This document shows, one piece after another, positions 1,101-5,821 of a stretch of DNA of 28,057 nucleotides. Every line of letters begins with the position of its first letter. The stretch's first letter is position 1. The DNA is from Acidimicrobiia bacterium (GTDB lineage: Bacteria; Actinomycetota; Acidimicrobiia; Spongiisociales; SHLN01), in contig JABDOU010000283.1 in NCBI GenBank assembly GCA_013043085.1, positions 1-28,057 on the forward strand, written 5' to 3'. The notes beneath the pieces are model-generated. The model ran no database searches. It saw nothing but the letters and a program-made list of their open reading frames with translations, and was not told where the DNA came from. The translations under genes were made by a program, and so were the position numbers.

Positions 1101-2878
1101 AGGTCACGCGGATCTGCATCGACGCGGACCGTGATTCCCTTCTGTCGCCAGGTGTGAATCACATCTCGTAAACCAATGCGAAAAGCACGCAAATCACGAC
1201 CCTGGGCCAGCCATCGGAATCCGTGGCCGGCCGGCGCCGGCCCGAACAACTCCACACCACGCTCAGCAGCGAGGTCGGGAAGCTCATCCGTGGGTTCCGA
1301 TGTTTCAACGACCAGCACCTCCCCTGCCGGCGGTAACACCAGTCGGGCGCGTTCTGCGAGTTGTTCCAACATGAACTCCGATGCATCCCCCCGCCTGAGA
1401 GCAACGATTACCGGATCGAGAGGGTGACTGGTTTGCACAATGAGGCGGTTTCCTCTCCCCCGTTCGACCAGTCTCGCCACTCGCACCATGACCTGCAGCG
1501 ACCGTTCGCGAGCCCGGTAGTGAGGTGCGGCAATCAATCCATCTGCATCGACAATCAGCGCCAGATCAACACCTGTGGCGGCAGCAAGGTCCGCTTCGCT
1601 TCCAACGGAAACTCTCTTCTCGTGACCCGGCTCCGACAGGTCGATATCAAGTACTCGCCCGACGTGTTCGGCTATGCGTTCAACTCCGGCACCAAGCGGC
1701 TCGAACCTGACGCCCTTGCATGTTGTACACGCGTCGGATTCATAGCCGCATCGCTCACACACTGGCCCCCGGCCGAGCCGTGCCTCACAGGAAGAACATG
1801 TGCGGACCGCGCGACACTGCACACATCGAAATGCCGGTGCATAACCCCGTCGATGAGCAAATACGAACAGTCTCTTGCCGCTGTTGAATGCATGTGTGAG
1901 CGCCCGGGTGCCGGACGGACTGAGAAGCCGTCCTTCCGGTGGTTCCTCGGAACGGTCAATCACCTCGACCAGTGGCCAGAGCCTTGTCGAAGTGGCTACG
2001 ACTCCCACCCCTGCGTCAAGCAGGTCCGTTGAGGCGGTGGAGCCCACGAATGCCAGCGCAAACTTTTCTACCGTCGCCCGTTTTCGCAATACCTCGCGAA
2101 CGTGCATGGTTGGCGTCTGCGGCTCCTTCATGGCCGGACGTTCTTCCTCAACTGCGATCGCAATACCCAGATCGGCAACCGGCCAAAGCACCCCCTCTCG
2201 GGTCCCGACGAGCACATTCCCGGCCTGGGCAGCCATCCTCACCCACGCTCGCGTTCGGACCTTCGATTCGAGTCGGCTATGGGTAATGACGATCCGGTTG
2301 CCGAACCATGCTTCAAGCGCCCGGCCCAGCCGATCAGCTTCGATCACCGTCGGCGCGATCACCATCGCTGATCTTCCAGAACGAACCACGGGACCCAGCA
2401 AACCGGCTATGGCAGCGGGTAATTCATCTCGCACGAGAATCGCCGTCGCGGGCGTCCGCTTGCGGTTTGCGGCAGCCGTCGTAAATGACGGATGAACCGA
2501 TGAAGGTGTTCGTGCGGGATCTTCGAGCTCCGGCAGGCGAATTTTCTTGGGAAGATTCGGAGGCGTGGTTTTGGCAAGAACTACCGACATCGGAGCAACG
2601 TAATGGGTTGCAATCCAACGCAGCACTTCAACCCCTGAAGACGAAAAGGCTGGATAATCGCTCGAAACGGCAGCTATTGGTTTCAAACCCGTCACATCTC
2701 CGCGACGAACAGAAATCACGTACCCACGTTTCCTCCGGTTTCCCACTGGAATCCTGACGACTGAGCCAACCGAGAGGTCGAGTCCGGCTGGTATCGAATA
2801 GCTGAACCCGTCATCGACAGCGAATGTGGGAATCGCTGGAACAACCTGTGCTATCAGCTCTGCATCAGCGTCGCTCAA
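1097..2878 (-). CDS. priA: Primosomal protein N' (PriA), with degenerate helicase motifs
   Basis: N-terminal FSYSIPAGLDLSVGSVVRIPVGNR (PriA 3'-DNA-binding-domain-like), RRGYAP followed by four CxxC pairs, and the late motif LIVQTSHP. Located in the coaBC-priA-def-fmt context. Start uncertain: TTG at 2878 chosen, ORF open to 2905. Confidence 0.88.
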   Translation of the reverse strand: MSDADAELIAQVVPAIPTFAVDDGFSYSIPAGLDLSVGSVVRIPVGNRRKRGYVISVRRGDVTGLKPIAAVSSDYPAFSSSGVEVLRWIATHYVAPMSVVLAKTTPPNLPKKIRLPELEDPARTPSSVHPSFTTAAANRKRTPATAILVRDELPAAIAGLLGPVVRSGRSAMVIAPTVIEADRLGRALEAWFGNRIVITHSRLESKVRTRAWVRMAAQAGNVLVGTREGVLWPVADLGIAIAVEEERPAMKEPQTPTMHVREVLRKRATVEKFALAFVGSTASTDLLDAGVGVVATSTRLWPLVEVIDRSEEPPEGRLLSPSGTRALTHAFNSGKRLFVFAHRRGYAPAFRCVQCRAVRTCSSCEARLGRGPVCERCGYESDACTTCKGVRFEPLGAGVERIAEHVGRVLDIDLSEPGHEKRVSVGSEADLAAATGVDLALIVDADGLIAAPHYRARERSLQVMVRVARLVERGRGNRLIVQTSHPLDPVIVALRRGDASEFMLEQLAERARLVLPPAGEVLVVETSEPTDELPDLAAERGVELFGPAPAGHGFRWLAQGRDLRAFRIGLRDVIHTWRQKGITVRVDADPRDL

Positions 2879-4040
2879 GCACCGTATCCCATAACCGGTG
2901 AGCAACTTCGGCCTTGCTGAGGGTTGGCCAGACGTCCTGTTGCCCGTCCGGCGTCACGAGCATGACCTGATTGGTATCTGTCCCGAAACCGGAATCAGGT
3001 CGGGACACGTCGTTTGCGACGAGAAGATCGACCTTCTTGCGCTTGGCCTTGTCGATGGCTCGATCGAGCGAACCAACTTCAGCTGCGAACCCGACGAGGT
3101 ACGTTTCGGGCGATCGTTCTGCCACGCCGGCAAGCACGTCCGGAGTCGGCTCCATCGCCAGCGTAGGTGGCCCGGACGACCGGTCAATCTTCGCCTCAGA
3201 CGTCTTGCCGGGCCGAAAGTCAGCTACCGCCGCCGCCATCACTGCCACGTCAAGCCCTTCGAGAGAAGCCCAGGCGGCTTCGGCCATCTCCTGGGCGGAT
3301 TCGACCGTTACAACAGAGATGTTCTCGTGGTCAGGAGCCCCCACCGAGGTGACCAGCCTCACGCGAGCCCCTCTTCGCGCCGCGTCGAGAGCAATCGCGT
3401 TGCCCATCTTTCCGCTCGATCGGTTGCCGATGTATCGAACTGGATCTATCGGCTCGCGGGTGCCACCGGCCGTTACCAGTACGGTCAAGCCATCCATGTC
3501 ACCGGGTCCCAGAATGCGGATGACCTCAGAAATGATCTCATCGGGTTCAACCATCCTGCCCGTTCCATGATCGCCGCTGGTCAGCGCTCCCTCAACCGGT
3601 CCGACGAGATATACACCATCGGCCAGGAGTTGGGCTGTGTTCCTACGGGTGGCGGGTTGCTCCCACATCTCGGTATGCATCGCCGGGGCGAAGAGGCGTG
3701 GAGCTCTCGAAGCGAGCAATGTTGCCGACAGCAGATCGCTACCCCCGCCAATCGCGGCTCTGGCCAAGAAGTTGGCGGTTGCCGGCGCGACCACGATGAT
3801 CTCGGCCCAGCGCGCTAGATCGGTGTGAGGACTCGGGCTCAGCCCGTCGAACAGGTTGGTGTGCACGGGACGACCTGCGATTGCGGACAGAGTTTGTTGT
3901 CCGACAAACTGTTGAGCGGCGTCCGTCAGAATGACTTCGAGTTCGGCGCCGGCCTCCATGAATCTCCTGGCGAGATAGGCAGCTTTGTAGGCCGCAACGC
4001 CTCCACTGATACCTAGAAGAACTCGCCGATCGGCGAGCAC
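2865..4040 (-). CDS. coaBC: Bifunctional phosphopantothenoylcysteine decarboxylase / phosphopantothenate-cysteine ligase
   Basis: Motifs LLGISGGVAAYKA, VAPATAN, PAMHTEMW, TAGGTREPIDPVRYIGNRSSGKMG, AAAVADF and GFAAE. Confidence 0.96.
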   Translation of the reverse strand: MLADRRVLLGISGGVAAYKAAYLARRFMEAGAELEVILTDAAQQFVGQQTLSAIAGRPVHTNLFDGLSPSPHTDLARWAEIIVVAPATANFLARAAIGGGSDLLSATLLASRAPRLFAPAMHTEMWEQPATRRNTAQLLADGVYLVGPVEGALTSGDHGTGRMVEPDEIISEVIRILGPGDMDGLTVLVTAGGTREPIDPVRYIGNRSSGKMGNAIALDAARRGARVRLVTSVGAPDHENISVVTVESAQEMAEAAWASLEGLDVAVMAAAVADFRPGKTSEAKIDRSSGPPTLAMEPTPDVLAGVAERSPETYLVGFAAEVGSLDRAIDKAKRKKVDLLVANDVSRPDSGFGTDTNQVMLVTPDGQQDVWPTLSKAEVAHRLWDTVLERR

Positions 4041-4041
4041 G

Positions 4042-4275
4042 TTACTCCGGCTCGACGATGTCTACCGCAACCTTGCCTGCCGCGATCTCCTCGAGTGCAA
4101 TCGATAGCGGCTTGCGGGACAACGTCTGCACCTGGGGTGGAGCGTACGTCCCGATACCTTCGCCAAGCTGGTTGTAATAGGCGTTGATCTGACGTGCTCT
4201 CCTGCTCGACAGCACGACGAGGGTGAAGCGCGACTTGGTCTCTTTGAGGACGTCTTCGATTGGCGGGTTGATCAT
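4042..4275 (-). CDS. rpoZ: RNA polymerase omega subunit (actinobacterial type)
   Basis: NPPIEDVL...SRFTLVVLSSRRARQINAYY...KPLSIALEEIAAGK; located between gmk and coaBC. Confidence 0.95.
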   Translation of the reverse strand: MINPPIEDVLKETKSRFTLVVLSSRRARQINAYYNQLGEGIGTYAPPQVQTLSRKPLSIALEEIAAGKVAVDIVEPE

Positions 4276-5142
4276 TTATTGCATCCGAAACTTGGGGAGG
4301 ACCCGAAGTATAGAGCGCAGCTCACCTGCAGCACGTTCCACGTCGTCGTTGACGACAGTGAAATCAAAGAATGGAACTTCCTCGAGTTCCTTTCTTGCAG
4401 TCGCAAGCCGTTCGGCAACATTGGTCGTGTCACCTCGTCCTTTGAGTCGCTGTTCCAGTTCTTCGATGCTCGGCGGAAGTATGAACACGAGCAACGCCTC
4501 GGGCATCGCTGTCTTGACCTGCCTGGCGCCCTGCACTTCGATCTCGAGAACAACATCTCGACCCGCCCGCAGGTGCTGTTCGACGGCTTCACGCGGCGTG
4601 CCGTAGAGGTTGCCTGCGTACTCTGCCCACTCGAGCAGGCGATCCTCATCGATCCACTCATTGAATTCGGTTTCACTGAGGAAGAAGTAATCCCGACCGT
4701 CTACCTCGCCGGGACGCATCTGCCTTGTGGTAGCAGAAACCGAAAGGTGAAACGACGTGTGCTTGGCAAGTTCTCGAATAACCGTTCCCTTGCCCACTCC
4801 GCTAGGCCCGGAGACAACGATCAACCGACCCCGTGCCAACTCGAGCAGTGCTTTGCGGTGATTGTGGCTGAGATCGGCGATTCGGACGGTCTCCTCAACC
4901 CCGAGATCTTGCAGGCAAGCGAGGGTTTTGACCTTCCCGACCCCGGGTATCACCCACATGAGTGATGCCACTTTCGACGCGCCCAGGGTCGCATCGGTCG
5001 ACGCCTGATCGAATAGCTCCTCGAGCGTCATTCGCCTCGTGCGGAGAGCCTCTCGTGCGCGCTTGCGGACATCCCGGAATCTCGCAGCATGGTCGAGCAC
5101 TTCACCACGATCAGCCACGTGACGCTCCGGCAATCTCCTCAT
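4276..5142 (-). CDS. gmk: Fusion protein (288 aa): N-terminal mIHF/sIHF-like nucleoid-associated domain plus C-terminal guanylate kinase
   Basis: ATG at 5142. Residues 1-103 resemble actinobacterial IHF (LPxxxxxxRxxxLxxAAxxR and KVxSLMxxIPGVGKVK). From about residue 105 it is Gmk: LIVVSGPSGVGKGT, SVSATTRQMRPGEVDGRDYFF, LEWAEYAGNLYGTP, LEIEVQGA, FILPPS, VVNDD. No stop codon between the two domains. Confidence 0.9.
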   Translation of the reverse strand: MRRLPERHVADRGEVLDHAARFRDVRKRAREALRTRRMTLEELFDQASTDATLGASKVASLMWVIPGVGKVKTLACLQDLGVEETVRIADLSHNHRKALLELARGRLIVVSGPSGVGKGTVIRELAKHTSFHLSVSATTRQMRPGEVDGRDYFFLSETEFNEWIDEDRLLEWAEYAGNLYGTPREAVEQHLRAGRDVVLEIEVQGARQVKTAMPEALLVFILPPSIEELEQRLKGRGDTTNVAERLATARKELEEVPFFDFTVVNDDVERAAGELRSILRVLPKFRMQ

Positions 5143-5821
5143 TGATTCGTGCGACGGCCTCGACCGGGTTCGCTGCAGCAGTGATGGGGCGCCCGACGAC
5201 CAGATAGTCGGCGCCGCGGGCCACGGCCTCGGCTGGTGTAGCCGATCGGCGCTGGTCCGCACGATCCATCGCTGCTGGACGAATGCCCGGCGTCACCCTG
5301 ACCATATCGGGAGCGACGTCGGCCACAACACCGAGTTCCGGGACTCCGCAGACCACACCCTCCACCCCGGCATCGGCTGCTGCGCGAGCGAGTCGCGATA
5401 CGAGTTTGCCGGGGGTCGTCCCTGGTGCAATCTTCTCCACGTCACCTGGCTCGAGGCTGGTGAGGACCGTGACAGCCAGGATTCCCACATCGCCGCCACC
5501 CGCGCCCGACCTCATGCCTTCGTTGGCAGCCTCCATCATCGTCCGACCCCCTGATGCGTGAACTGTCAACCACCTTGCACCATATTGACCAACCCGCCGG
5601 GCCGCGGCCTCGACCTGGGAGGGAATGTCGTGAAGTTTGGCGTCGACGAAGACGGGGAGCCCTATGCGCGCCAGCGCCGCCGTGGTGGCAGGTCCGGGTC
5701 CCATCAAGAGCCCCAGTCCGATCTTGAAGCCGGCGACGTGGTCTTTGAGGCGTTGGGCGATGGTCACGGCTTCGTCGGCGCTCGGTAGATCAAGCGCCAG
5801 GAGGATCCGACTCGTTACCAC
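5111..5821 (-). CDS. pyrF: Orotidine-5'-phosphate decarboxylase
   Basis: Motifs ILLALD, FKIG, DAKLHDIP, TVHASGG, AVTVLTS, TPGIRP and DYLVVGRPIT. GTG start at 5821 overlaps the pyrD stop; the ORF-track extension to 6049 lies inside pyrD. Confidence 0.95.
   Translation of the reverse strand: MVTSRILLALDLPSADEAVTIAQRLKDHVAGFKIGLGLLMGPGPATTAALARIGLPVFVDAKLHDIPSQVEAAARRVGQYGARWLTVHASGGRTMMEAANEGMRSGAGGGDVGILAVTVLTSLEPGDVEKIAPGTTPGKLVSRLARAAADAGVEGVVCGVPELGVVADVAPDMVRVTPGIRPAAMDRADQRRSATPAEAVARGADYLVVGRPITAAANPVEAVARINEEIAGASRG

Follow-up and report, generated by a model that had tools for sequence, protein, structure and literature searches.

What becomes of a nucleoid protein when its gene runs without a break into that of a housekeeping enzyme? 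The question is raised by a locus in a stretch of 28,057 nucleotides (hereafter the window) that covers positions 1 to 28,057 of contig JABDOU010000283.1 from an Acidimicrobiia bacterium (assembly GCA_013043085.1). Between pyrF and rpoZ on the minus strand, a single open reading frame (ORF) encodes a domain resembling the actinobacterial integration host factors (IHF) mIHF and sIHF, followed by guanylate kinase (Gmk). In mycobacteria mIHF is an essential and abundant chromatin protein, and we know of no described partner for it. A full-text literature search found no paper on mIHF together with guanylate kinase. The fusion is genuine and occurs throughout the genus. Taken as a whole, the observations lead us to lean, with moderate confidence, towards a fusion born by deletion, in which an intact Gmk carries an IHF-like accessory module that has been repurposed and would no longer be a classical nucleoid protein.

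One reading frame for an IHF-like domain and guanylate kinase

The minus-strand frame is open from 5262 to 4276 (987 nt) and contains no stop. A preliminary description of this DNA had placed an mIHF-like domain and a complete Gmk in one uninterrupted ORF, which is borne out by the open frame and by profile matches above the cut-offs of PF22525 and TIGR03263. The source is a fragmented metagenome-assembled genome (MAG) of 2.46 Mb in 416 contigs that is 77% complete; apart from this fragmentation, nothing was found that would point to a dropped base, a chimeric contig or another artefact of sequencing or assembly. The same 987-nt frame is present with 1-6 substitutions and no indel in three independent assemblies of the species (GCA_018680515.1, GCA_013001065.1 and GCA_013043185.1), and full-length, stop-free matches with 68-88% protein identity are found in all four species of the genus (here called g1; genomes G000-G003 of the GTDB set). 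Metagenome proteins from several sources show the same architecture. A stop or frameshift at the junction, which the preliminary description had named among the findings that would undo it, is absent from the four assemblies of the species and from the three congeners; this continuity excludes sequencing or assembly error, whose probability we consider negligible. In each of the four g1 genomes the fused ORF is the sole match to NF041260 or other IHF-like sequence and the sole match to PF00625 or other Gmk-like sequence.

The N-terminal part is related to mIHF and sIHF by profile, sequence and fold (positions of the Pfam and NCBIfam matches in the window protein are counted from ATG 5142). The Pfam family H2TH_5 (PF22525; S13-like helix-two-turn-helix, H2TH) matches residues 33-101 with 42.5 bits, well above its cut-off of 27, and the NCBIfam profile actino_IHF (NF041260) matches residues 10-101 with 55.6-58.8 bits, narrowly under its cut-off of 60. 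The anticipated match to the mIHF profile is thus upheld by the first family and narrowly missed with the second. Among the congeners, the NF041260 score is above 60 in G002 (64.6) and below it in G001 (57.9) and G003 (56.9). A sequence search of the PDB with the IHF domain returned 6TOB (E 2.2e-9) and 4ITQ (E 2.1e-8), both ungapped over about 90 residues. The AlphaFold2 (AF2) model of residues 1-96 has a mean predicted local distance difference test score (pLDDT) of 94.1 and is all-helical, with a long N-terminal helix and an H2TH core. In Foldseek this model aligns to 6BEK and 4ITQ with template-modelling (TM) scores of 0.81-0.87 and root-mean-square deviations of 1.4-1.7 A, and to 6TOB with a TM score of 0.74. 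A protein search limited to the IHF region of the g1 clade retrieved four proteins only, as word matches between this domain and other IHFs are few.

The C-terminal part matches Pfam Guanylate_kin (PF00625) at residues 105-280 (E 1.5e-49) and the TIGR03263 equivalog profile with 231 bits, the cut-off being 160. The 31 invariant columns of a 55-sequence Gmk alignment, in which the window protein is included by construction, span the P-loop and the residues of the GMP site. Foldseek connects the C-terminal domain to the Gmk of E. coli (E 5e-22) and of M. tuberculosis (E 1e-20), with target-normalised TM scores up to 0.88, and the full-length AF2 model reaches a pLDDT of 93.7 and a predicted TM score (pTM) of 0.87, a value suggestive of packing between the two domains. 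Judged from sequence and modelled fold, the C-terminal half is a complete and intact guanylate kinase, which has the full-length core, the P-loop and the GMP-binding and lid residues in common with other TIGR03263 enzymes (Rv1389, 1ZNW; E. coli, 1S96). It differs from these by the 96-residue IHF-like domain at its N-terminus and, unlike the Gmk of the sister genera, has no short low-complexity leader. Because no other gmk match is present in the four g1 assemblies, we infer that the fused protein must be made and must be catalytically active as Gmk. A C-terminal tail is conserved in the fused clade and is found neither in the Gmk of the sister genera nor in other fused forms; its AF2 pLDDT is <50.

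The start of the gene is most likely GTG 5118, giving a product of 280 residues (about 31 kDa), because the homologues, which are 279-286 residues long, have N-termini that align at this codon, because a GGAG precedes it at a suitable distance (Table 1) and because it overlaps the stop codon of pyrF (GTGGCTGA). The upstream ATG 5142 that was preferred in the preliminary description was considered and gave way to GTG 5118 in view of the homologue lengths and the GGAG, since no Shine-Dalgarno sequence accompanies the ATG. The start deposited in all four assemblies of the species, the record of the window and three other NCBI assemblies, is Met54 of the 280-residue product. This start is rejected, as residues 4-53 align to mIHF and sIHF and purifying selection acts on the entire domain. 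The deposited calls hide the N-terminal domain and thereby make the fusion invisible in the annotation. The surrounding genes form a tightly coupled operon in the order pyrF-(ihf~gmk)-rpoZ-coaBC, which corresponds to the conserved operon pyrF-mihF-gmk-rpoZ-coaBC. When mihF was deleted in M. tuberculosis, gmk and rpoZ had to be supplied in trans against polar effects (PMC6155035).

Table 1. Position of the fused gene, its parts and its neighbours in the window
Feature	Position	Strand	Remarks
Fused ORF	4276..5118	-	280 codons plus TAA stop at 4276-4278; likely start GTG 5118, from homologue lengths
Shine-Dalgarno GGAG	5125..5128	-	6 nt upstream of GTG 5118
ATG preferred in the preliminary description	5140..5142	-	Adds 8 codons; without Shine-Dalgarno; 32 nt within pyrF
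ATG (Met54), deposited start	4957..4959	-	Gives 227 residues (P0003); splits the IHF domain in half
mIHF/sIHF-like H2TH domain	4831..5118	-	Residues 1-96; PF22525, NF041260, PDB search, AF2
H2TH turn PGVGKVK	4927..4947	-	Residues 58-64, kept; P58, G59 and G61 invariant in alignment A1
Lid between helices 4 and 5	4867..4902	-	Residues 73-84; GVEETVRIADLS replaces the canonical GIADNRRIRGLN of the sister genera; alignment
Junction ELA-RGRL	4822..4842	-	Residues 93-99; two TTG Leu codons, 4839-4837 and 4824-4822
Guanylate kinase domain	4279..4830	-	Residues 97-280 (184 residues); TIGR03263, invariant residues, Foldseek
P-loop GPSGVGKGT	4783-4809	-	
C-terminal tail VLP[KRQ]FRM[QKN]	4279-4305	-	Last 9 codons
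pyrF (OMP decarboxylase)	5111..5821	-	TGA stop 5111-5113 overlaps codons 2-3 of the fused gene
rpoZ	4042..4275	-	ATG abuts the TAA of the fused gene, no spacer (TAAATG)
coaBC	2865..4040	-	Next gene after rpoZ in the tightly packed operon

The DNA-contact lid and the pace of evolution

The IHF-like domain shares its fold, the PGxGK turn and the position between pyrF and gmk/rpoZ with mIHF (M. tuberculosis Rv1388, 6TOB) and sIHF (S. coelicolor SCO1480, 4ITQ/6BEK). Unlike these proteins it is welded to Gmk without a linker, has a neutral or acidic lid instead of RR[ILV]xGLG and a net charge near zero, and evolves faster than the neighbouring Gmk, while its NF041260 score falls under the cut-off in three of the four species. 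In sIHF a positively charged lid of 11 residues between helices 4 and 5 makes the main contact with DNA, the H2TH turn makes the second, and the conserved N-terminal helix makes none (PMC3627587).

In the g1 clade R4, A11, R15 and R18 of the N-terminal helix are kept, as is the H2TH turn, and there is strong conservation of a motif specific to the clade (SKVASLMWVIPGVGKV). The arginine-rich RRIxGLG lid is gone, NRRIRGL being replaced by ETVRIADL. Among the 12 lid residues 0-1 are lysine or arginine and acidic residues have been gained, against three arginines in the lids of the sister genera. The lid region (residues 73-88) carries a net charge of -1 in the window protein and of -1 to -3 in the clade as a whole. 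Of the 23 other IHF domains in the alignment, whether fused or free, 22 have values of +1 to +5, the exception being P0142 (-1). The charge of the domain as a whole shows the same trend. Calculated over residues 4-94 in the same alignment columns, it is -4 to +3 in g1, against +6 to +9 in the sister genera and +5 to +15 over all other domains of the alignment.

Loss of lid arginines is also seen elsewhere. In the fusion of G224, which belongs to another Acidimicrobiia family (L029:1504-2403), and in P0193 the lids are de-arginated as well (GTAVGELDDATRR and EATRAGVLDDATRE, respectively); together these two represent a second, unrelated-looking fused lineage. The lid of P0142 has likewise lost its arginines (APTTPVGALAAD). 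In view of these three cases, lid decay may be a repeated event in fused forms.

The two halves of the protein also differ in evolutionary rate. Between the sister genera g2 and g3 the IHF part is 82% identical and Gmk 60%. Between g1 and g2 the values are about 40% for IHF and 55% for Gmk, and between g1 and g3 they are about 40% and 59%. Within g1 the nonsynonymous divergence (dN) of the IHF part is 1.6-2.7 times that of Gmk, with values of 0.114 and 0.051 for the pair G000-G003, whereas in the sister genera the ratio dN(IHF)/dN(Gmk) is 0.3-0.7, with medians of 0.11 for IHF and 0.25 for Gmk. The IHF part of g1 thus changes at about double the rate of Gmk, the opposite of what is seen in the sister genera. 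It is still under purifying selection: the ratio of dN to synonymous divergence (dS) is 0.18 in the least saturated pair (G000-G003) and 0.13-0.45 overall, the domain is free of stops, and no indel is seen in it even in clade members with as little as 63-64% identity.

These rates bear on the idea that the fusion is a neutral, frozen accident: a deletion would have joined two co-translated genes and left a dispensable IHF domain that slowly decays and is kept only since its removal would endanger the essential gmk. Relaxed constraint and the loss of functional residues would agree with it, and another nucleoid protein perhaps took over, considering that three of the four g1 genomes have a second HU-family gene. 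Fusion of the adjacent genes should also be easy, as in many actinobacteria mihF and gmk directly adjoin each other or are read in a common frame. The dN/dS values, however, are well under 1, not one indel or stop has accumulated among species with saturated synonymous sites, and the strong conservation of the motif SKVASLMWVIPGVGKV points to a maintained function. We consider such neutral decay quite improbable.

A different view is that the protein is bifunctional, its N-terminal part being still associated with the nucleoid, so that Gmk would be placed on the chromosome or DNA binding would respond to guanine nucleotides. The preliminary description proposed a tether of this kind, by which GDP supply would be linked to the nucleoid or DNA binding made responsive to nucleotides. 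The conserved fold, H2TH turn and helix arginines are consistent with it, as are the purifying selection on the domain and its status as the sole mIHF homologue of the genus. Moreover, C-terminal GFP fusions of sIHF (PMC3627587) and msIHF (PMC10028186) are functional, so the C-terminus of these proteins tolerates cargo. The proposal is nevertheless weakened by a lid that is neutral or acidic, with 0-1 basic residues where the sister genera have three arginines, and by the loss of the net positive charge of the domain, which is now about zero. An acceleration of IHF evolution by 4-5 fold relative to Gmk and NF041260 scores below the curated cut-off in three of four species also speak against it. 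We regard a bifunctional g1 protein as unlikely, though deserving of consideration. The companion suggestion of the preliminary description, that the IHF part is divergent and may be changing function, is supported by the loss of lid and charge and by the raised rate.

Junction, origin and spread

At the junction the last IHF helix runs straight into strand 1 of Gmk (RKALLELA-RGRLIVVSGPSGVGK). The linker-free sequence RKALLELA-RGRLIVVSG and the TTG at codon 4839-4837 are as they had been reported. The TTG at 4839 had been put forward as an ancestral or second start of gmk, and it is the first of two in-frame TTG codons found there. G000 and G003 have TTG at both places, G001 has CTG at the first place, and G002 has CTG at both. 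No Shine-Dalgarno-like sequence was detected before TTG 4839 or TTG 4824. A conserved second start at TTG 4839 is not supported by this pattern. The codons could be taken to mean that the ORF gives two products, with free Gmk arising from an internal start (TTG 4839 or 4824) or by proteolysis and the fusion existing at the DNA level only. This is very unlikely, as neither TTG is conserved over the four species or preceded by a ribosome-binding motif, and as the leader and start that gmk has in the sister genera are gone from the fused gene.

The arrangement in these relatives indicates how the fusion could have come about. As stated in the preliminary description, mihF and gmk are normally adjacent, separate genes, and this holds for the relatives that were examined: they are adjacent yet separate in the g2 and g3 genomes and in 11 other sampled families of the order. 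Eight sister loci (L007-L014, from g2 and g3) carry a canonical mihF that ends with NRRIRGLxERQRQALLDxLx and a stop. In these loci the segment for strand 1 and the P-loop of Gmk (GRLFVVxGPSGVGK) follows 4-12 codons past the mihF stop in another frame. In most of them gmk has a single in-frame ATG or GTG available, which is conserved in position and located within mihF by about 40 nt (CTCAATGA or CTCAGTGA). With such a start, the Gmk leader of the sister genera is an alternative-frame reading of the conserved 3' end of mihF, which suggests overlapping, coupled translation of mihF and gmk in the unfused relatives.

Relative to these sister loci, 10-13 nt (3n+1) are missing from the fused genus, in a stretch that takes in the last codons of mihF and its stop. 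A net loss of this size across the mihF stop is enough to explain the fusion: it removed the stop and welded the last IHF helix onto strand 1 of Gmk. The resulting 280-residue protein is most likely translated from GTG 5118, with its translation coupled to that of pyrF.

The same two-domain architecture was sought in relatives of g1 and, beyond its four species, is found in G224, in family f100 and in Microbacteriaceae. In a class sample of 301 genomes, full-length stop-free matches are limited to G000 and G224, and in about 30 genomes a single stop is all that separates mihF from gmk within one frame. In a phylum sample of 401 genomes, the full-length matches are those of G000 and of all four sampled f100 genomes, and the arrangement with an in-frame stop is present in about 55. 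The order, class and phylum samples include genomes flagged as unpublished (G028, G298, G322, G366, G404, G433, G616 and G632), which enter only the overall tallies of unfused arrangements and on which no specific claim depends. In cases with an in-frame stop, such as G161, G127, G358 and G389 (loci L016-L024), one substitution or readthrough of the stop would give a fused product. By chance alone, frame sharing would be expected in one-third of cases; the arrangement is somewhat rarer than this and may mean nothing.

One of the f100 genomes is that of Agromyces intestinalis, whose fused protein (P0278) has 309 residues. With its IHF part as query, 1,729 clusters at 90% identity were retrieved that have the length of a fusion. 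Of the 120 clusters listed, nearly all carry PF22525 together with PF00625 and are named 'guanylate kinase'; the taxa include Agromyces, Rathayibacter, Luethyella, Leifsonia and Cryobacterium. Two river-water Actinomycetota MAGs also have the fused gene. Among 1.84 billion cluster representatives (50% identity), full-length fusions make up about 13-16 of the top 150 matches. The representative search was topped by P0130, P0140, P0144, P0148 and P0171, long proteins of 900-1,400 residues with 3-7 Gmk-like stretches; these are probably multi-Gmk or MAGUK-like proteins that are unrelated to the IHF-Gmk fusion. The architecture itself is already widespread in public genomes under the bare name 'guanylate kinase'. 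What is new in g1 is the loss of the arginine-rich lid and of the positive charge, and the reversed rates of IHF and Gmk; the absence of a linker likewise sets the g1 protein structurally apart.

The fusions of Microbacteriaceae and of the freshwater Actinomycetota MAGs resemble the g1 protein in combining PF22525 and PF00625 in one ORF within the same operon. Unlike the g1 protein, whose lid is degenerate and whose domains are joined directly, they keep a canonical basic lid and a positively charged IHF domain and have a linker, about 10-25 residues long. Their Gmk domains also branch elsewhere in a quick maximum-likelihood tree of modest support, in which the clade of the window protein (SH-aLRT 99) stands amid unfused Acidimicrobiia and apart from the other fused groups. 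This tree forces at least two origins of the fusion, about 11 being the most parsimonious number. The g1 fusion probably arose independently of those in Microbacteriaceae. The fusions of Agromyces and of other lineages that keep the canonical lid are probably bifunctional, and a Gmk on the nucleoid would suit these Microbacteriaceae proteins better than that of g1.

Repeated independent fusion of mihF and gmk could also be read as a 'Rosetta stone' sign of physical cooperation between mIHF and Gmk in Actinomycetota at large, with this cooperation as the sole role left to the domain in g1. The N-terminal helix of IHF might, for example, dock Gmk beside the chromosome and RNA polymerase, rpoZ being the next gene. 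If true, this would account for the retention of the helix arginines and the H2TH core in a domain that has lost its DNA lid. We attach only a small probability to it.

Role of the IHF-like domain in the fused genus

In the reading that we favour, a fusion of intact Gmk with a repurposed module, the IHF-like domain of g1 would have ceased to be a classical abundant nucleoid protein and would persist as an N-terminal accessory module of Gmk. The module may be structural, or it may mediate an interaction through the conserved N-terminal helix; it would be at most a weak nucleic-acid tether by way of the H2TH turn. A plausible driver is stoichiometry, as an abundant nucleoid protein and a housekeeping enzyme would be forced to a 1:1 ratio once fused.

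Several points weigh against this reading. The H2TH turn and the N-terminal helix, which is very basic, could still allow binding of DNA, or of RNA. No mIHF homologue other than this domain was found in the genus, and since mIHF is an essential protein of M. tuberculosis (PMC6155035), full loss of its function would need compensation. The four g1 assemblies are 77-94% complete, and a second mihF or gmk could conceivably be located on unassembled DNA. In the rate analysis dS is saturated in all pairs but G000-G003, and the species pairs are non-independent.

The genus and its relatives offer a natural experiment, with sister genera that have a canonical free mIHF on one side and a fused genus that has the fold but no DNA lid on the other. 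Comparing them would show what the N-terminal helix and the H2TH core contribute, and whether IHF and Gmk are functionally linked.

The second HU-family (PF00216) gene of three of the four g1 genomes has a counterpart in none of six unfused relatives, which have at most one such gene: four g2 genomes have one, another g2 genome has none, and a g5 genome has one, in a comparison of small sample size with incomplete genomes. The second gene may compensate for a weakened IHF, or its presence may be coincidence. In G000 the two HU-family genes are located at G000:C155:2643-2927 and G000:C213:6707-6973.

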